In this document: positions 4,181 through 32,308 of the stretch, piece after piece
Layout: each line of letters opens with the position of its first letter
How positions within the stretch are numbered: the stretch's first letter is position 1
NCBI GenBank assembly: GCA_035531495.1
Contig: DATKSU010000005.1
Span: 41,984 to 105,983 of the forward strand
Direction: 5' to 3'
From: Minisyncoccota bacterium
GTDB taxonomy: Bacteria; Patescibacteriota; Minisyncoccia; Phycocordibacterales; Phycocordibacteraceae
Length of the DNA stretch: 64,000 nt
Position numbers and translations under genes: made by a program
Notes under the pieces: generated by a model
What the model saw: the letters and a program-made list of their open reading frames with translations, nothing else
What the model was told of the DNA's origin: nothing
The model's database searches: none

Positions 4181-4365
4181 AAAGTGAGGCAAACGGCGCG
4201 GAGCGCCGGACTGCGAAAGGTTGCGGAACTGCGCTTGTAGGGATTCCGGAACCTCGAGCAGGACGGGTGCCGCAGGCACCGTTTCGCCGAACGCGCGCGG
4301 AGTATCGTAATCGATACTCCGCGGCATTCTGGCGTATCCTACCAAACCCGCCCGAAAATGTCCTG

Positions 4366-4439
4366 TGCCGGGGGACGGAATTGAACCGTCGACCTTGGGT
4401 TTATGAATCCCATGCTCTAACCAACTGAGCTACCCCGGC
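4366..4439 (-). tRNA. tRNA-Met (CAT), elongator type (or Ile2/lysidine)
   Basis: Reverse complement GCCGGGGTAGCTCAGTTGGTTAGAGCATGGGATTCATAAACCCAAGGTCGACGGTTCAATTCCGTCCCCCGGCA. G1-C72 is paired and the anticodon loop is TTCATAA. Confidence 0.85.
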
Positions 4440-4695: not shown

Positions 4696-5298
4696 ATGAC
4701 CAAGGATGACGGACGCGTCGTGTTTCTCGAGGGACGTCGCGCGTATCTGCGACCGCCACAGGAATCGGACATTCCCTTGTTACTGCGCTGGTTCAATGAT
4801 CCGGGCGTGCGGAAGTTCCTCGGGCGGCTCTATCCGATGACCGAGGCGCAGGAGAAGAAGTTCATCATGAGGACGTTCGACGAAGCGCGGAACAATCTCG
4901 TCTTCATCATTGTCCTCAAGGGCGCGTCTCCGGAACGCGATCGACCCATCGGCACGATGGGCCTCCATCAGATCGAGTGGCACAACGGCGTCGCGACGAC
5001 GGGGGCGGCAATCGGCGAGAAGAGTTGCTGGGAGAAAGGTTACGGGACGGAAGCGAAAATGCTCATGCTCGAATACGCCTTCAATGCCCTGAACCTTCGC
5101 AAGATATACTCCCGCGTCCTCGCCACGAACCACCGCAGCAACGCCTACAGCAAGAAGTGCGGCTACACGCACGTCGCGACGCTGCCGGAGCGCCACTTTC
5201 GCGACGGCCGCTATGTCGACGAGCACATCCTCGAGGTGCGCGCCGAGACGTGGCGCGCGCTGTGGGAACGTTCGAGAAAGAAGTTCTTGCCGAAATGA
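4696..5298 (+). CDS. GNAT family N-acetyltransferase (RimJ/RimL-like)
   Basis: 200 aa with a typical GNAT core (LHQIEWHNGVATTGAAIGEKSCWEKGYGTEAKMLMLEYAF) and C-terminal RDGRYVDEHIL. Confidence 0.8.
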   Translation: MTKDDGRVVFLEGRRAYLRPPQESDIPLLLRWFNDPGVRKFLGRLYPMTEAQEKKFIMRTFDEARNNLVFIIVLKGASPERDRPIGTMGLHQIEWHNGVATTGAAIGEKSCWEKGYGTEAKMLMLEYAFNALNLRKIYSRVLATNHRSNAYSKKCGYTHVATLPERHFRDGRYVDEHILEVRAETWRALWERSRKKFLPK

Positions 5299-5303
5299 TT
5301 CGG

Positions 5304-5326
5304 CGCGCCGCCCCTCCGGGGCGGCG
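5304..5326. terminator. GC hairpin between convergent GNAT and histidine-kinase genes (putative bidirectional terminator)
   Basis: gcgccgcccc-tcc-ggggcggcg followed by atttctt. It sits in the 34-nt gap between the ends of two convergent genes. Confidence 0.45.
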
Positions 5327-5331
5327 ATTTC

Positions 5332-6930
5332 TTACGCCGGCAATTCAACGATGAAGGTCGAGCCCCTGCCCTGCCCTGCCGATTCGGCGCGGATGGTGCC
5401 GCCGTGCGCGGCGACGATGTTCTTCGCGATGTAGAGACCGTAGCCGGTGGAGTATACGTTCACCTTCTGCGATTCCTTGCCGTGGCCGCCCTCGGTGAAG
5501 AGCCGGGCTTTGTCTTCGTCCGTGATGCCGACGCCGGTATCCTTCACCGCGAATACGAGCTTGCCGTTCTCCTTCTTGAGCGAGACGGCGATTGAGCCCG
5601 ACGGGGTGTAATTGATAGCGTTCTCGATGAGATTGCGCAGCACGTGGCTGCCGAGCTCGGCGCGGTCACCCGTCATCTGGTACGACTGCGAGTCGTCGGC
5701 CGCAAATGAGAGCGCGAGACCTTTCGCCTCCGCTCCGGGTCGTTCCTTCTCCGCTATCTCCGCAGCAAGCGCCTTCAAGTCGAACGGCTCCTTCTTGTAC
5801 GTCATCGTACCCTTCTTCTGGTTCGACGCCTTGAGGATATCCGCGACCGAGTCCACGCCATCGCGCGACTGCGCGAGCGCGCGCTCGACGAGCGGCCGCA
5901 GCTCCTGCGACAGCGCGCCGAAATCCCCGTCGAGGAGCGCAGCGAACGTCCCCATATCTTTCGTGAGGAACCCTTTCACCTCGTGGCCGATGAAGTGCAG
6001 AAGTCCTTCCTGCCGCTCATTCGTCTGTTCGAGCTCCTCACTCAACTTCTCAAGATTCAGCATGTCCATGACGATCTTGACGCTCCCGATGAGCACGATG
6101 ATGAACGCAGTTATGTTGATGGCGACGGCGCTCAGGCTCACGGAATAAATGATGTTAACGAAACTGAAAACGGTCACCATAAAACCGAGCAGTCCGGCAG
6201 TCGCAACCTTCAGGTTGAAATTGAATAATCGGTGCCGATAGATGGCGTATGAGATGAGTGCGATGAACGGGAGCAAGAAGAGCGCGGCGAGAGGTATGAA
6301 GCTGAGTTGGTTGAGGAATACGGGAAGGAAAACGTTAAAAAGAAGTATGAGAATTGCGGTGAGTGCCATTCCGGCAGCAATCGAATACTCCTGTTTGCGT
6401 TCTTGAACCTCTGTGCTTCCCCAAGCCTTCCGAATAATTGAGGTGACACCGGCGATAAGAAGACCGAAAGCAACTATAGAGAAAATGATAATACCTGGCC
6501 CCCGTTCAGGATTCGTGACGTATCCAGGAGGAGCAAGCGCGGTAATGCCCGAAAATACGAAAGGGGTCAGAACCAGTATCATGGTCATTCCCACGATAGG
6601 AATGAGGCCGAATTTATACCAGCGCGGGAAAGTCACCTTATCCTTCGGAAAGACGTATGCGAGCTGGAAGAAGAGGAGGGCGTGAAGCGTGGAGAGAAAA
6701 AGATGGAATCGGAGCGCCCAGAGGGTCGCGTCGATAGTCGTGAACTTGTACTCGAGGTAATTCGAAACGCCCCAGATGGCGGTAAGAATGGAGAAATAGA
6801 AGAACGTCCGACTGGTTATACTCCTCGGATTCGTGAGATAGATGAGGAACCCGAGCAAGATGATGCCGGCGATAGCGACGCCGACCGAAAGCAGGTCGAA
6901 ATTAATATCGACGAGCGCGGTGATTCCCAT
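5332..6930 (-). CDS. sensor histidine kinase with polytopic N-terminal membrane domain
   Basis: About 8 TM helices, then an H-box (FIGHEVKGFLTKDMG) and HATPase_c motifs (NLIENAINYT; VKDTGVGI; GGHGKESQKVNVYSTGYGLYIAKNIVAAHGGTI). No adjacent response regulator. Confidence 0.9.
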   Translation of the reverse strand: MGITALVDINFDLLSVGVAIAGIILLGFLIYLTNPRSITSRTFFYFSILTAIWGVSNYLEYKFTTIDATLWALRFHLFLSTLHALLFFQLAYVFPKDKVTFPRWYKFGLIPIVGMTMILVLTPFVFSGITALAPPGYVTNPERGPGIIIFSIVAFGLLIAGVTSIIRKAWGSTEVQERKQEYSIAAGMALTAILILLFNVFLPVFLNQLSFIPLAALFLLPFIALISYAIYRHRLFNFNLKVATAGLLGFMVTVFSFVNIIYSVSLSAVAINITAFIIVLIGSVKIVMDMLNLEKLSEELEQTNERQEGLLHFIGHEVKGFLTKDMGTFAALLDGDFGALSQELRPLVERALAQSRDGVDSVADILKASNQKKGTMTYKKEPFDLKALAAEIAEKERPGAEAKGLALSFAADDSQSYQMTGDRAELGSHVLRNLIENAINYTPSGSIAVSLKKENGKLVFAVKDTGVGITDEDKARLFTEGGHGKESQKVNVYSTGYGLYIAKNIVAAHGGTIRAESAGQGRGSTFIVELPA

Positions 6931-10845: not shown

Positions 10846-12354
10846 CTACGCCAGTCCCGGGAAGTAGTCGGTCTTGATGGAAAGGCGCGGGACGCCGAGC
10901 GTGTGGAGCGCGCGTTTCATGGCGTCCACCATGCCCGGCGGGCCGGAGAGGTAGAAGAGGCGGTTGCGATAATCGGGAATCTCGCGCTTGATGAACGCCG
11001 CGTCGATTGCGCCTGCGTGCGCGCCCGGCATGAGGGTCGTGCTGTCTGTTATGGCGTAGACGGTCCGCAAGCCGCGGGTCGCCGCGCTCGCGAAGACGTC
11101 CTGGTAGGCGACCTCTTCGGCCGTGCGGCTCGAGTAGAGGAGGACGGCATCGCGCGACTCCCCCGCCGCGACCAGGTGCCGCGCCATACTCGCGAAGGGC
11201 GTGACGCCCACCCCGCCCGCGATAAAGGCGAGCTTGTGATTCTTGTCGACCGGCATGGTGAAATCGCCCGAGAGCGATGCGGCCGTGACGACGCCGTCTT
11301 GCGGGATGGCCGCAAGCGCGCGCTTGAAGGCGCTCGGTTTCTCGTAGAAGCGGACGCCGAGCCGGATCTGGCCGTCCTCCGGCGCCGAGGCGATAGTGAA
11401 GTAGCGGCGGTTGCCGCGGCTGTCGAACGGCACATCGCGCAGCGTCCACTCGAGGTATTGCCCCGGACGGAAGGTGAACGGGCGATCGGGCCGGAAGACG
11501 AACTCGTAGATGCCGCGCGCGAGCTTATGGCGCTCCGTGAGCGTGAGCATGTAGCGGCCTTTCGGGCTCACGACGTACGAGAAGAGATTCCCGGCAAGGA
11601 GTGCCGTCTCCGGCGTGAAGTAGAAGGAGCCGACGTGCGCGGCCGGCACGAAGAGCACGCCGACGAGCGCGCCATAGATGATGCGCAGCGTGCGCGACGG
11701 CGGCATCGTGAGGGGTTCGGTGAGCATGACAAAGCCGAGGAAGAAGAACGCCGAGTGGAGGATGGTCTCGTTCAGGCCGGTCACGGGGCTGAGCGACGTG
11801 AACGCGGTGGCGAGGAGCGCGGCGACGCCGAACGCGATGACGAGGTCGTAGCGCCGGAGCTTGTGGACGATGGCGAGCCCGCCGATGACGACGAACGGCA
11901 GCAAAGGCAGGTTCCCCGACACCCACCACGTCGCGTTCACCGCGAAGACGAAGGCCGAGAACGCGACCGCGAACGCCGCCGGGTTGAAGACGTGCTTGTT
12001 CCCGAGCGAGAAGATGTACTTCGACGCGGTGCCGGCGGCGGCGATGAGCGCGTAGAGGATGGTTGCGCCGATGCTGCCGGCCGAGATGGGCGGCAGGATG
12101 AGGACGAGGATGAGCCCCGTGATGAGCGAGGATTCCGCGTTCGTCACCGCGTCGAAGATGTTCGCGAAAATGAGGTTCGTCGCCCACGAGCCCGCGACGA
12201 GCACGATGAGCGTATAGAGGAGCGGGACGGGCGCGTACGGCAGGATGCCGAATACGCCGAAGGCGAGCGCGACGACATAGAGAACGACGAGGTAGTAGAG
12301 CACGAGCCGATACATCGTCGTGCGGTCGATGAGGCGCTTCAGAGCGGTGATCAT
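10846..12354 (-). CDS. membrane-anchored FAD/NAD(P)-binding oxidoreductase (FNR-like C-terminal module on a ~250-aa polytopic N-terminal domain)
   Basis: C-terminal RYFTIASAP (RxYS FAD motif) and GGVGVTPF (NAD(P) motif). N-terminal half has 6-8 hydrophobic helices. Confidence 0.7.
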   Translation of the reverse strand: MITALKRLIDRTTMYRLVLYYLVVLYVVALAFGVFGILPYAPVPLLYTLIVLVAGSWATNLIFANIFDAVTNAESSLITGLILVLILPPISAGSIGATILYALIAAAGTASKYIFSLGNKHVFNPAAFAVAFSAFVFAVNATWWVSGNLPLLPFVVIGGLAIVHKLRRYDLVIAFGVAALLATAFTSLSPVTGLNETILHSAFFFLGFVMLTEPLTMPPSRTLRIIYGALVGVLFVPAAHVGSFYFTPETALLAGNLFSYVVSPKGRYMLTLTERHKLARGIYEFVFRPDRPFTFRPGQYLEWTLRDVPFDSRGNRRYFTIASAPEDGQIRLGVRFYEKPSAFKRALAAIPQDGVVTAASLSGDFTMPVDKNHKLAFIAGGVGVTPFASMARHLVAAGESRDAVLLYSSRTAEEVAYQDVFASAATRGLRTVYAITDSTTLMPGAHAGAIDAAFIKREIPDYRNRLFYLSGPPGMVDAMKRALHTLGVPRLSIKTDYFPGLA

Positions 12355-13094
12355 GGCGTGGTGTAGGTTACGAAACCGCTCGTGAATATCGCCGTACCGG
12401 TATCCGTGATGGCGTACCCCTCGAGCCCCGGCGTGCGCTCGATGAAAGCGATGCCGTCCTTCCCCATCGCGAATGCCGCGGTGGCGTAACGGTCGGCTTC
12501 GAGCACGTCGGGGCCGATGACGGTCAGGCTCACGATATCACGCAGCTCGCGCGACGGATCGTGCGGGTCGTAGATATGCGCTCCGCGCAGATAGGAGCCG
12601 GAGGTCGCAATGCCGGCGCCCTTCGGATAGACGACCTTCACGATCTCGTCAGTCGCGAACGGATTGCGGATGCCGACCTTCCAGGGCTCGCCGTTCGCAT
12701 TCTGTCCGCTCATGGCGATGTCACCGCCGGCGTTCACAAAGAAATGCTGTTGGCCGTTCTCCCGGATGCGCGCGGCCGCGTTCTTGACCGCCCAGCCCTT
12801 CACGATGCCGGACGGGTCGAGTGACCCGTCCGGCCGGCGGATGTCGAAGTAGCCGCCCGTCTCCGCCTTCGTCCGCTCGGCGATGGCGAAGACCTCGCGC
12901 ATCTCGCGGCTCGCGGTCTCGGGCGCGAACTCGCCGCGATTGATGCGTGATATCTCGCTCGTGTCCTTGTACGTACTGAAACGCTCGTCCACCGCTTGGA
13001 GGTACGCGAAGGCGTCCTCAACGGCCGGCTTCGTCCCCTCGCCCACGATCTCAATCTCGACGGGCATGCCCATCACGGGGCGAATCTCGCGCAT
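12351..13094 (-). CDS. apbE: FAD:protein FMN transferase (ApbE family)
   Basis: ApbE-like motifs (TSEISRINR; SGIVKGWAV; GGDIAMSG; IATSGSY). 4-nt overlap with the upstream gene. Confidence 0.85.
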   Translation of the reverse strand: MREIRPVMGMPVEIEIVGEGTKPAVEDAFAYLQAVDERFSTYKDTSEISRINRGEFAPETASREMREVFAIAERTKAETGGYFDIRRPDGSLDPSGIVKGWAVKNAAARIRENGQQHFFVNAGGDIAMSGQNANGEPWKVGIRNPFATDEIVKVVYPKGAGIATSGSYLRGAHIYDPHDPSRELRDIVSLTVIGPDVLEADRYATAAFAMGKDGIAFIERTPGLEGYAITDTGTAIFTSGFVTYTTP

Positions 13095-29745: not shown

Positions 29746-30387
29746 TCAGGGTTCCCGCCGGACGCCGTAACGGAGGATGACGAGGGTAGCGAGAGCGACT
29801 GCAAACGCTACGGCAGCGACGCGATACCAGAGAGGAAGGGCCCCCGTGTACGCGAAATAGAATCCGAACGGCGCGACGCCGATGGCGGTCGCGACGACGT
29901 AGGAACGCCACGGCATCGCGCTGAACAGCCCGAGCGCGTAGCTTAAGATGTCAACCGAGACGAGTATGCGCATGAGGACGACCATCCAGAAAAGATTCCG
30001 TTTCGGGATGCGGCTCTCGATTGCGCGAATGCGCTCAAGACCGATGAGCCGCGCGACGACCGGCTCGCCGAAACGGCGCGCTATAAGGAATGCGATTGCC
30101 GCGCCGAGCGTCCATCCGGCGATGCTCATGAGCGCCGTCGGCAGTGGTCCCCACGCGACCGCGCCGATGGGAATCAAGAGGGCGATGTCGAGCGGTATGA
30201 TGAATATGACAAAGACAGCCGTGAGGAGGATGTATGCAGCAACGCCGAGTATCCCGCCCTGCGTGACAAGGGTCGCGAGCGCCGCGTGATACCGCTCGGC
30301 CAGCACGGAAACCGCGATGAACGTGATCGCGAGCAAGAGAAGCGCGGCGATCTCCCCATGGAGCGTTCCTTTGGGAGGAATCTTCAT
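29746..30387 (-). CDS. DedA/TVP38 family membrane protein
   Basis: 213-aa polytopic protein with a DedA-like core (GPLPTALMSIAGWTLGAAIAFLIARRFG). Confidence 0.75.
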   Translation of the reverse strand: MKIPPKGTLHGEIAALLLLAITFIAVSVLAERYHAALATLVTQGGILGVAAYILLTAVFVIFIIPLDIALLIPIGAVAWGPLPTALMSIAGWTLGAAIAFLIARRFGEPVVARLIGLERIRAIESRIPKRNLFWMVVLMRILVSVDILSYALGLFSAMPWRSYVVATAIGVAPFGFYFAYTGALPLWYRVAAVAFAVALATLVILRYGVRREP

Positions 30388-30458
30388 GCGAATGAGTATA
30401 GCTTGAGCCTGATACCGCGAAAGGCGCCCTTTCGGGCGCCTTTCGCTACCGTGATGCC

Positions 30459-30520
30459 GAGCGGTACTGTACCGACTTTGACGAGGAACGGTACTGGTTC
30501 CCCCGAGCGGTACTGTACTG
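30459..30520. promoter_or_regulatory. three spaced copies of palindromic GGTAC-N-GTACC motif (gaRcGGTACTGTACc) upstream of dedA
   Basis: Copies at 30459-30473, 30487-30502 (degenerate) and 30505-30520, following a perfect hairpin aaaggcgccc-tttc-gggcgccttt at 30412-30440. Confidence 0.4.
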
Positions 30521-30696
30521 ATCCCAATGGGGGCCGGAAGCAGTTCCTGGCTTCACAACCGTGTTGCCCATGTCGGTCGTGCACCCCACCATATAAGGTA
30601 TCTAAGGGTCTTCCCAGCTCCCTTCTCTCTCCTTGGAATAGGCGCACCGGACTCATACGATCTTGAGATAGATTGGGCGTACTTTGGTGCTTTCGA

Positions 30697-30726
30697 GGTG
30701 CTTTAGGAGCGTGTCGGTCTTGAACC
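30697..30726. repeat. direct repeat copy A (gCTTTAGGAGCGTGTCGGTCTTGAAC), left boundary of AT-rich islet
   Basis: 26/27 identical to copy B at 32154-32183. Confidence 0.6.
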
Positions 30727-30753
30727 AAAATGAGACAAATGAGACACACCCCC

Positions 30754-31341
30754 TTAGAAAAAGCTCTCGGCCAAAACGTTGGAATCGAACTGAAGTGAAA
30801 GATCGCCTCGCGTCTTGCGGCCAGTCCAGTACTCACCCTCTAGGCGGCGATTCGGTCGCTTGATAATTTTTAGGATCGCCGCACCATCATGAATAGCACT
30901 CCTATCCCAAAGGGACGCCTTCGGACGATTCGTGTAGTTATAGGTCAGATACAGATCCTCGCCGTTAGCCGTTGCGTTTATGCTGGTGGTGGTACTGTAG
31001 CTAGTCGACTCTTTCGTCATGAGAGTGATATTTATGTCCGAGAAACTCTGACGAATCACCAGAATGACAGGGACCGGTGCGATCGATTGGCCAGTTTTCG
31101 GGTCGATCCAATCGCTCTTCAATTCGCCACGCCACGTTCCACGCAAGTCTGGAACCTTAATCGGCACACTGTTCCCTACTTGAGTATCGGAGGATGTGGT
31201 CGCGGTCACTGAGGTTGGCGACGATGTTGCAACAGCACTCGACGAATTCGACGATCCTGCGGACGCTACGAGTATGACCACCAGAAAGAATCCGCCAGCG
31301 ATCCAAAATATCTTACGTGAACTCCCGATCTTCGTTGTCAT
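30754..31341 (-). CDS. hypothetical N-terminally anchored protein with Ser/Thr-rich linker and beta-rich C-terminal domain
   Basis: MTTKIGSSRKIFWIAGGFFLVVILVASAG then S/T linker and a ~130-aa domain (RGTWRGEL...YWTGRKTRGDLSLQF). AT-rich codon usage unlike the core. Confidence 0.5.
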   Translation of the reverse strand: MTTKIGSSRKIFWIAGGFFLVVILVASAGSSNSSSAVATSSPTSVTATTSSDTQVGNSVPIKVPDLRGTWRGELKSDWIDPKTGQSIAPVPVILVIRQSFSDINITLMTKESTSYSTTTSINATANGEDLYLTYNYTNRPKASLWDRSAIHDGAAILKIIKRPNRRLEGEYWTGRKTRGDLSLQFDSNVLAESFF

Positions 31342-31632
31342 ACCGCGTCAGGGTTAGGGGTAAATCCTGATGGGCGGGTAGCACAAAACCCGCTACCAGG
31401 AAGGCCTTGCGGCCTCTATAGGAGTTTCCCCCTATAACGTAAGCCACGCCCTGATAACGGGTTTTCTGTGGCTTACGATTGTCGACCATGCCCGGGGACG
31501 AATCCCGCAGGTTTAGGCCATTTCTATTCGTGTGTCGAACTTGTACATAATAGCTCGTTTTCAGCTATCCTTGTAGACCCTAGCTTAGATCTAAGGTTTT
31601 GCGAAATAGGTTACCAACAGCAAGACTTTGCC

Positions 31633-31782
31633 CTATTCAGGCATCTCTTTCGGTTCGTCCTCAACATCTCTTTGTATTTCTTCAAATTCATTCTCGATCT
31701 CTGAGAGCCGCTTCTTACATGCCCATTCTGAAGTTAGAGTTTCAAATTTCTCGAGATATTCTATTTTCTGCTTTTTATCCAT
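31633..31782 (-). CDS. 49-aa charged coiled-coil-like small protein, hypothetical
   Basis: MDKKQKIEYLEKFETLTSEWACKKRLSEIENEFEEIQRDVEDEPKEMPE. Not in the ORF track (short). Confidence 0.3.
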   Translation of the reverse strand: MDKKQKIEYLEKFETLTSEWACKKRLSEIENEFEEIQRDVEDEPKEMPE

Positions 31783-31791
31783 AGTTATAGT

Positions 31792-31989
31792 CTAGCGAAA
31801 ATTATCACGCGGCCCGGATGGTCGGTGAAATATGTGAGCGTTATAATCCCGATCTAGTTTTAAATTTCCACATTCAGGACATGGGGTCTCTGAGATAAGA
31901 GTTCCTTTAGGAACTTCAATTTCATTCCGGAAGGAGCAATTCTCGCAGAGCACATATATCTTGTAGCTGGAGCCATTCTCATTATCCAT
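31792..31989 (-). CDS. zinc-ribbon small protein
   Basis: Two CxxC pairs (CENC...CPEC) in 65 aa. Confidence 0.45.
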   Translation of the reverse strand: MDNENGSSYKIYVLCENCSFRNEIEVPKGTLISETPCPECGNLKLDRDYNAHIFHRPSGPRDNFR

Positions 31990-32153
31990 ACAACCATTAT
32001 CTCACTTATGACGTATAAGTGAAGCTGCTCTCTAAGTAATTCAATGTTAACCAATTTTACTGTAATTGCGACACGAACCATCCTCAAACGTGGGAATTGA
32101 ACTGAAAATATGGTGCATATGCTAGAAACGCAAAAACCACTTTCGTGGTTTTA

Positions 32154-32183
32154 TGCGCTTTAGGACCGTGTCGGTCTTGAACT
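32154..32183. repeat. direct repeat copy B (gCTTTAGGACCGTGTCGGTCTTGAAC), right boundary of islet, 55 nt from tRNA 3' end
   Basis: See copy A. Confidence 0.6.
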
Positions 32184-32237
32184 GAATTTCGGCATTTTTG
32201 ATGCCGGGCGGTCTGATTAACAGGCCGCACTACCGTG

Positions 32238-32308
32238 TTGCGGGGGCGGGAATCGAACCCGCGTCTGGAGGTTATGAGCCTCCCGAGGTACCTCTCCTCT
32301 ACCCCGCT
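32238..32308 (-). tRNA. tRNA-Met (CAT), initiator-like
   Basis: Reverse complement AGCGGGGTAGAGGAGAGGTACCTCGGGAGGCTCATAACCTCCAGACGCGGGTTCGATTCCCGCCCCCGCAA. Anticodon loop is CTCATAA. It has a 1:72 mismatch (A.A) and an A11:U24 pair, which point to an initiator, but the G29 of the initiator GGG triplet is an A here. 4-nt variable loop. Confidence 0.75.

Follow-up and report, generated by a model that had tools for sequence, protein, structure and literature searches.

The two transmembrane (TM) helices of Cap15, an effector of type I CBASS (antiphage signalling that works through cyclic oligonucleotides), serve membrane disruption. The LOOT motif reportedly belongs to the 2017 collection of Weinberg and co-workers, where it is said to be a “metagenomic-based RNA” of unknown function. 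In the literature available, LOOT is described only as a structured RNA from metagenomes, of six helices and ~43 base pairs (PMC7779021, PMC7657543), and a search of that literature returned nothing on LOOT function. Panoptes-type systems are reported to pair mCpol with a 2-TM beta-barrel effector that is held inactive by cyclic nucleotides (PMC12657218, PMC12657230). The locus described here lies in a 64 kb stretch of the Minisyncoccota bacterium assembly GCA_035531495.1 (contig DATKSU010000005.1, positions 41,984 to 105,983), referred to as the window, where a short foreign islet that carries a LOOT RNA and a Cap15-type beta-barrel adjoins an initiator-like tRNA-Met gene.

The islet, approximately 30448-32124, is probably what is left, in decayed and mosaic form, of DNA that was acquired horizontally and lodged in the 3′ trailer of this tRNA-Met. 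Its core would come from a family of phage-like integrative elements of Patescibacteria. An internal deletion or recombination of ~4.6 kb would have removed the stretch between the 5′ end of a LOOT-adjacent gene and about codon 70 of cap15, and the remaining ends would have fused in frame into a 195-codon open reading frame (ORF195), in which the start of the former gene runs on into the 3′ two-thirds of cap15. The recombinase side would have been lost and replaced by a fragment of an unrelated AT-rich defence-type module, of which ORF65 and a 20-codon DpnII/MboI-type stump would remain. Two direct repeats occur here: the right one would be the third hairpin of the native tRNA trailer (the attB/attL side), and the left one the site behind cap15 where the element has its right end, beyond which would lie ~250 nt of older element or attachment-site (att) debris. 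Because there is no cyclase the islet cannot signal or act as CBASS, and because there is no recombinase it cannot move by itself. A preliminary description of this DNA had proposed a repeat-bounded integrated element or its remnant, either a decayed island or a minimal cargo module. Much of this agrees with what was found: the DNA is foreign and close to a tRNA, an empty site exists in a Ca. Paceibacterota genome (DATKTB010000020.1, here L021), and the island is decayed. The repeats, however, are not the limits of the foreign DNA, and a minimal cargo module fits neither ORF195, a fusion without the two TM helices of its family and without a cyclase, nor ORF49, a stump.

Coordinates are window positions, and minus-strand features are marked (-). 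The closest relative is the metagenome-assembled genome SKS1.bin88, represented by L003, L004, L005 and L020 (99.99% identical). The three small minus-strand ORFs of the preliminary description are present as it had them (195 aa, 30754-31341; 49 aa, 31633-31782; 65 aa, 31792-31989). From the tRNA leftward, the features are as follows:

32237-32308 (-): tRNA-Met(CAT), host gene (ARAGORN; Rfam tRNA, 60.2 bits)
32183-32236 (-): native 3′ trailer spacer, 54 nt, with two small hairpins (from conservation and folding)
32157-32182 (+): right direct repeat (DR-R), whose minus strand reads GTTCAAGACCGACACGGTCCTAAAGC; third trailer hairpin, GACCG-ACA-CGGTC
32125-32156 (-): trailer terminator, a hairpin and U-run, with an equivalent hairpin in the same place in L021 and L004
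31990-32124 (-): AT-rich non-coding leader upstream of ORF65, GC 0.36
31792-31989 (-): ORF65, a zinc ribbon with two CxxC pairs (weak Zn_ribbon Pfam matches)
31633-31782 (-): ORF49, a gene stump; codons 1-20 (31723-31782) match the N-terminus of a 275-aa DpnII/MboI-type protein
31520-31632 (-): conserved promoter-like box upstream of LOOT, TTCGCAAAA..CTAAG.TAGGGTC plus an invariant TTATTAT
31401-31519 (-): LOOT RNA (Rfam RF03000), full length by covariance model
31165-31341 (-): ORF195, 5′ part, with a single TM segment (residues 7-32, by hydropathy) and a Ser/Thr-rich linker
30754-31164 (-): ORF195, 3′ part, with the whole of a Cap15 cyclic-dinucleotide-receptor beta-barrel, joined to the 5′ part exactly at IKVPDL
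30726-30753 (-): 28-nt spacer after the ORF195 stop codon, with GTCTCATTT twice; nearly invariant relative to SKS1.bin88
30700-30725 (+): left direct repeat (DR-L), whose minus strand reads GTTCAAGACCGACACGCTCCTAAAGC
30448-30699 (-): non-coding “tail” that travels with cap15, with a junction-like block, ACCGACATGG followed directly by GCAACACGGTTGTGAAGCC
30418-30447 (no strand assigned): perfect 13-bp hairpin, GCGAAAGGCGCCC GAAA GGGCGCCUUUCGC, ending the tail at the left edge of the foreign block
29746-30387: host gene of the VTT/DedA family (Pfam VTT_dom), beyond the left-edge hairpin

The composition of the islet is foreign. GC content is 0.39-0.54 across 30500-32150, compared with 0.58-0.69 in the flanks and 0.62 over the whole 64 kb. 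ORF195, ORF49 and ORF65 have GC contents of 0.51, 0.37 and 0.43 and third-codon-position GC (GC3) of 0.58, 0.38 and 0.41, against 0.58-0.67 (GC) and 0.70-0.86 (GC3) in seven host genes; they form two compositional classes, both far from the host. The preliminary description had suggested a check of GC and codon usage, and GC and GC3 are both off host values across the islet, although “markedly AT-rich”, its wording for the whole, is true for 31550-32150 only. Contigs that resemble possible donors have GC contents of 0.52 (L003/L004) and 0.36 (L070). The reported absence of an integrase is borne out: none occurs among the Pfam-annotated gene calls at 28.5-41.3 kb, and the serine recombinase of the element family, used as a tblastn query, found nothing significant in the 64-kb window. 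The repressor and methylase of the parent elements likewise have no tblastn match there.

The chimeric nature of ORF195 emerges from comparison with its homologs. Its C-terminal part matches the Cap15 barrel in Pfam (PF18153, 3.6e-22, 79.4 bits against a cut-off of 31.2, profile positions 2-120 of 122), in PADLOC (CBASS “2TM effector” PDLC00702, 1.3e-51) and in the PDB (Cap15, 7n34, E = 0.0015), and it is 93% identical in amino acids and 88% in DNA to the SKS1.bin88 protein (P0002, on L004). A search with ORF195 gave 264 matches at E <= 0.001 with ~70% identity, over the C-terminal 69% of ORF195 only. All full-length homologs inspected have a two-TM N-terminus (MEKVN...WRW..FQGWL) and then IKVPDL, and ORF195 becomes unrelated sequence exactly at that junction; hydropathy shows one TM segment in ORF195 versus two in P0002. 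At nine homolog loci the Cap15 gene comes directly after a gene for a 296-298-aa CD-NTase. Upstream of ORF195 that position is taken by the LOOT RNA, and tblastn with two cyclases from the closest elements found no match in the window. The N-terminal anchor, Ser/Thr linker and beta-rich domain that the preliminary description had given for the 195-aa protein are all there, and “defence effector”, one of the roles it considered, is right as the origin of the protein.

Position and architecture suggest that the 5′ part of ORF195 began as the start of the small gene found behind LOOT in intact elements; the sequence similarity is weak (27% identity, E = 0.04). Three Lys/Arg residues precede the single TM segment and none follow it. 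The topology, taken solely from hydropathy and the positive-inside rule, is predicted to be N-in with the barrel outside the cytoplasm, and because of this predicted location ORF195 is most likely an inert relic.

The elements from which the core of the islet may derive can be outlined from several lineages. SKS1.bin88 carries on one strand LOOT (68.7 bits), the 157-aa protein with a TM segment and Ser/Thr linker, a TerS-like gene, a ParB-methylase, two small genes, an S24 repressor, CD-NTase and Cap15. In L003 the gene calls for 5100-6000 lack the cyclase and have two reverse-strand ORFs instead; this is an artefact of gene calling and no natural loss of the cyclase, as L003 has an undamaged CD-NTase ORF, the same as in L004. 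Two further lineages (L071/L072 and L073/L075), with ~65% DNA identity to SKS1.bin88, have a divergently oriented 439-aa large serine recombinase (a Resolvase+Recombinase protein), LOOT (77 bits), a 140-aa TM protein, a 179-aa gene, a methylase, S24, DUF2188, CD-NTase and Cap15. A LOOT-specific pattern scan of IMG/VR added one more locus, L078 (LOOT, 76 bits), with a serine recombinase, a KAP NTPase, LOOT, a ~150-aa gene, TerL-like and TerS-like genes and a ParB-methylase. The intact design consists of a large serine recombinase, LOOT, a small (often membrane-anchored) protein, a TerS-like helix-turn-helix protein, a ParB/N6-N4 methylase, the S24 repressor, CD-NTase and Cap15. Window positions 31162-30508 are 87-88% identical in DNA to L004, from the start of the barrel through the stop codon and DR-L to ~190 nt beyond. 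Because the homology continues past DR-L, this repeat is not the edge of the foreign DNA; DR-R and the hairpin next to it are native, so that the repeats do not bracket the foreign segment as had been supposed. SKS1.bin88 also has two ORFs between the cap15 tail and a tRNA fragment (L004 5671-6381 and 6677-7303), neither with a Pfam match. One, of 236 aa, starts in the non-coding tail DNA and reads through a terminator hairpin, with a CxxxxGxCGGGC motif resembling a SPASM/radical-SAM fragment; the other, of 208 aa, has an HEIVH motif. Both are probably further island debris.

The non-coding stretch at 31342-31632 had been noted as structured, and it is, since it contains the LOOT RNA, a known Rfam family. 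The window copy scores 77.5 bits against a gathering score of 46.4 (E = 3.9e-14), covers model positions 1-121 of 121 and is not truncated. Elsewhere LOOT scores 68.7-77 bits, in SKS1.bin88 (L003/L004), L071/L072, L073/L075 and the IMG/VR contig L078, and it holds the same position in the module throughout: it lies beside the large serine recombinase in L071/L072, while in L078 the KAP NTPase gene lies between the two; in SKS1.bin88 no recombinase occurs within the sequence covered around LOOT. Where measured, the next gene begins at a similar distance, 59 nt for ORF195, 59 nt for the 157-aa gene of SKS1.bin88 and 64 nt for the 140-aa gene of L071, and all three products have the TM-plus-linker design. 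Conservation extends ~110 nt upstream of LOOT (window 31520-31632; L004 150-273; L071 5400-5549; L078 4980-5090); the functional LOOT RNA or its promoter is larger than RF03000. The TTATTAT of the upstream box stands ~25-30 nt ahead of the LOOT 5′ end and is aligned in the window and three other loci, and the box is seen in L078 too; it looks like a promoter. A scan of the islet for sigma-70 promoters and terminators gave nothing above shuffled sequence. Downstream of LOOT, ~40 nt are conserved as well (CTGG..G.GTT..TGC). With its full structure and conserved upstream box, LOOT is the part of the islet most likely to be still expressed.

LOOT was absent from the other Patescibacterial CBASS loci examined (L006-L010, L022) and from the IMG/VR loci of 55%-identical serine recombinases, and because of these absences it marks a sub-family of elements and not CBASS as such. 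An IMG/VR scan with Cap15 gave one locus, without LOOT; one with the LOOT-adjacent 157-aa protein returned low-complexity and TM noise only. As far as could be checked, the placement of LOOT in a defined element family, seen in four lineages, is new.

The right half of the islet would have another source. ORF65, the double-CxxC zinc ribbon that had been reported at this place, appears to be the only intact protein gene of the islet and has a single homolog among 5.8 billion proteins (P0121, 72% identity), which leaves the zinc-ribbon family with two members in that collection. The homolog is encoded on L070 (JACCDN011010930.1, 1-1603; GC 0.36), the only contig with one, between an ImmA-like HExxH gene and a gene for a 275-aa protein with a DpnII-MboI domain (Pfam PF18742, 2.6e-35, residues 127-271). 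These three genes of L070, for an ImmA/IrrE-like HExxH protein, the 65-aa zinc ribbon and the protein whose C-terminal domain is a DpnII-MboI restriction endonuclease (REase), form a compact cluster that may serve in defence or abortive infection as a small module not yet characterised. By tblastn, the first 20 residues of ORF49 agree with those of the 275-aa protein at 19 positions, and its other 29 codons are non-homologous read-through; the ORF first read as a charged, helical peptide is the stump left of a DpnII/MboI-type gene. DNA homology between the window and L070 is confined to 31723-31965. No ORF49 or ORF65 homologs were found in the CBASS elements, and the leader at 31990-32124 showed no similarity to any comparison locus examined.

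A repeat search found one 26-nt direct repeat pair (family D10), 25/26 identical (96%), at 30700-30725 and 32157-32182. The pair noted earlier is therefore real and has two copies, although the coordinates given then (30697-30726 and 32154-32183) were too wide by 3-4 nt per side. In a Smith-Waterman alignment the similarity goes on weakly for ~19 nt into the following hairpin region. DR-L is collinear with a copy in SKS1.bin88, 27 nt past the cap15 stop codon, which in L004 reads GTTCAAGACCGATACGCTCCTAAAAC. Its core, GACCGACACGNTCCTA, matches a conserved right-end motif, GACCGACCACGGTTCTA, of the L071, L073, L074 and L006 elements; the right end of the L071-type element, defined by these four different flanks, terminates in CTTGACCGACCACGGTTCTAGCTCAAGGACGCCAGC and holds GACCGACCACGGTTCTA where the repeat core has GACCGACACGGTCCTA. 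Because of this match we infer that the repeat is an att-type recognition sequence of the element family, with one copy belonging to the native trailer and the other to the element's right end, and DR-R is read as a putative attB/attL-like site. A tRNA T-arm fragment was first suspected as the identity of the repeat and was rejected, and a triplet resembling GGAATCGAAC (family D5) looks like chance. The right end of L071 also has a 43-nt direct repeat of its own (11990-12032 and 12998-13040, 84% identical, 1,008 nt apart), whose second, decayed copy looks like the scar of an earlier occupant and hence of repeated occupancy; the pair brackets a 267-aa gene.

The tRNA-Met is fairly called initiator-like, as it had been: in the Rfam alignment pair 1:72 is non-canonical (A1xA72), its anticodon loop is CUCAUAA, and the other CAT tRNA of the window (4365-4439) pairs G1-C72. 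Only two of the three canonical G-C pairs are found beside its anticodon loop. The tRNA at 4365-4439, with G1-C72 and a UUCAUAA loop, would be an elongator Met or a lysidine-modified Ile tRNA. Between the tRNA-Met 3′ end and the right repeat lie 54 nt, and this spacer is 92% identical to that of L064/L021 and 88% to the SKS1.bin88 copy, while the neighbouring protein shows just 70% amino acid identity. The trailer folds into three hairpins and a terminator (z = -5.2), with DR-R as the third hairpin. In all, the trailer measures ~110 nt (window 32125-32236 (-); L021 1350-1466; L004 7416-7540), and its 88-92% conservation spans genomes of GC 0.48-0.62 in which neighbouring proteins are ~70% identical; its first hairpin has compensatory changes at the top. 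Such conservation may reflect a functional trailer or small RNA, or repeated re-seeding by mobile elements.

An empty site, which the preliminary description had recommended looking for, exists in L021, where an ortholog of the 184-aa protein (70% identity), tRNA-Met, the spacer, one copy of the repeat core and the terminator follow one another with no insert, and a convergent host gene lies directly past the terminator. In L064, from the same species as L021, foreign DNA is joined to the last four tRNA bases and the trailer, an occupied junction, and SKS1.bin88 has a 15-nt tRNA-Met 3′ fragment with trailer and core 1.87 kb right of cap15. Because of the L064 junction and the SKS1.bin88 fragment with its trailer, the end of the initiator-like tRNA-Met together with its structured trailer is a repeatedly used insertion site in these bacteria.

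On the left side, the G-rich 5′ run of the 28-nt spacer can pair with the 3′ part of DR-L in the predicted fold. Over 246 nt the tail beyond DR-L has a p-distance of 0.176 to L004 (~82% identity), two blocks in it being near-invariant, and it evolves more slowly than synonymous sites (Jukes-Cantor distance 0.20 versus dS 0.42); its homology stops before a terminator hairpin in the window and in L004 alike. Its block of ACCGACATGG and GCAACACGGTTGTGAAGCC mimics a tRNA 3′ end with the start of a trailer, and L064 has a comparable junction. The GCAACACGGT block and the L064 junction are suggestive, not proof, of the tail being a decayed trailer copy; a local alignment put forward for that idea gave an 18-nt match, equalled by 1 of 500 shuffles, and was set aside. 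The tail also has two copies of CCGAGCGGTACTGTAC 46 nt apart (repeat family D17). Motifs of the type GGTACNGTAC, tried as arm-type sites and rejected, number 7 against 1.95 expected, weakly above chance, as 2 of 100 shuffles reach that count. Strains differ at the distal tail (window 30466-30507; L016 8458-8497; L012 1-40): contig L016 (ERZ27256799) departs from the window at 30507, with one 46-nt CCGAGCGGTACTGTAC unit fewer and another terminator hairpin, aaaagccgccctttcgggcggctt, and L012, from the same sample, matches the window. The edge of the island is still variable in the population.

Other explanations for the locus have to be set against this one. One idea is that the repeat matches by chance or belongs to a class of REP-like (repetitive extragenic palindromic) elements dispersed between genes, the latter a possibility that the preliminary description had itself raised, and that the AT-rich stretch is native; it can be regarded as effectively refuted. 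Short two-copy repeats often arise by chance and a 5-bp hairpin is embedded in this one, but the degenerate 25-mer occurs exactly twice in 64 kb and in none of 100 dinucleotide shuffles; among 185,579 species genomes the repeat was found in 2 contigs only, an IMG/VR scan gave 0 matches, and a JGI metagenome scan gave one relevant contig (7 of its 8 matches were chance ones, in unrelated coding DNA). Moreover, the empty site of L021 exists, the 88% DNA identity to an element of another organism spans the repeat, and GC3 lies far below that of the host. It is also quite unlikely that the 1,457-bp segment between the repeats is a mobilisable, non-autonomous mini-element moved in trans by the recombinase of a full-length element in the community. 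The same 26-nt att-like sequence does stand at both ends in direct orientation, its core is the conserved end motif of the element family, and in population assemblies several contigs break near the island, where one sequence variant is found as well. However, the precise empty junction such an element would leave (tRNA, one repeat, tail) is in no contig of the population; exact copies of ORF195 and of both flanking proteins led to no empty or excised variant, and the islet is identical in every contig of the same population from several samples, the contigs merely breaking inside it. Foreign DNA also goes on past DR-L, the native terminator follows DR-R, and the window has no recombinase.

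Retention for function would leave a domesticated minimal module of LOOT and ORF195 (and ORF65), for example an orphan Cap15-type sensor or effector, under LOOT control, for cyclic nucleotides that are made elsewhere or taken up. This is unlikely, though it has evidence of its own in an intact, in-frame ORF195 with a complete barrel and a barrel dN/dS of 0.086, in a full-length LOOT with a conserved upstream box at the native spacing to ORF195, and in the identity of the islet across the population. The 64 kb contain no CD-NTase; both Cap15 TM helices have been replaced and the barrel is predicted to be extracytoplasmic; among the homologs listed or checked of the 264, the ORF195 N-terminus recurs only in P0001, the same sequence cut short by the end of its contig; ORF49, next to ORF195, is plainly a stump; and a low dN/dS can predate the deletion. 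A related thought, and a long shot, is that LOOT is a functional self-sufficient module of Patescibacterial phage-like elements, a structured regulator of the gene directly downstream or of the lysogeny or recombination switch beside the serine recombinase, which was kept here, was possibly domesticated, and now drives a neo-protein that displays a cyclic-dinucleotide-binding Cap15 barrel outside an ultra-small cell of the candidate phyla radiation.

Several points also weigh against a decayed mosaic remnant. L021 is fairly distant (70% amino acid identity, GC 0.48) and has a different synteny downstream, and it is therefore not an exact picture of the site before insertion. Serine recombinases normally leave few identical bases at each junction, not 25 of 26; no recombinase is tied to the repeat site, and the left end of the SKS1.bin88 element lies beyond the sequence covered. 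The block of cap15, repeat and tail has one close comparator only, SKS1.bin88. The homology of the ORF195 N-terminus to the LOOT-adjacent gene is one of position and architecture, its sequence signal being weak. ORF195 is uninterrupted and in frame, and the low dN/dS of its barrel relative to SKS1.bin88 could mean retained function, although it probably predates the fusion. Finally, the LOOT region is 67% identical to SKS1.bin88 versus 88% for cap15 and the tail; one deletion in one SKS1-like ancestor is therefore too simple an account, and mosaic ancestry must be assumed. Taken as a decayed remnant, the islet itself is an ordinary genomic scar and should be annotated neither as a CBASS system nor as an active island, yet it illustrates the way in which very small genomes break up defence genes and recombine the pieces into chimeric ORFs. 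LOOT, so far an orphan motif from metagenomes only, gains a concrete genetic context: in four independent lineages it has a fixed position in a family of Patescibacterial phage-like integrative elements with a large serine recombinase, often with CD-NTase/Cap15 CBASS. This context makes its function testable, be it regulation of the downstream gene, lysogeny control or packaging.

Among described systems, tRNA-linked islands and prophage remnants are marked by att repeats, foreign composition and serial occupancy of one tRNA locus. Like them, the locus lies close to a tRNA, is foreign in GC and GC3, has a direct repeat in common with the native flank of the tRNA, corresponds to an empty site in a relative and holds the remains of more than one acquisition. 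Unlike in those islands, the repeated sequence is a trailer hairpin 54 nt downstream instead of the tRNA 3′ end, the repeats do not delimit the foreign DNA, and the large serine recombinase of the intact relatives alone would not explain a 26-nt duplication. Of three features of type I CBASS with a Cap15 effector (PDB 7N34/7N35), the islet has one: the C-terminal 135 residues of ORF195 form a complete Cap15-type barrel, whose closest relatives sit in canonical CD-NTase-Cap15 operons. The cyclase and the two TM helices are missing, the helices being replaced by one unrelated TM segment and a Ser/Thr linker, and the islet is thus a relic and not a system. Panoptes-type systems likewise use a Cap15-like TM beta-barrel effector (PMC12657218, PMC12657230), but no gene for mCpol or another synthase adjoins ORF195, whose barrel shares 93% identity with that of a canonical CD-NTase operon. 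Unlike the DpnII/MboI-type PF18742 proteins, ORF49 has the first 20 residues only, without the REase domain. As an instance of the LOOT RNA motif the window copy is full-length and well above the gathering score, and it adds to the Rfam description a place inside a defined element family, where a serine recombinase gene adjoins it and a small gene lies downstream, with ~110 nt of extra conserved upstream sequence outside the Rfam model.

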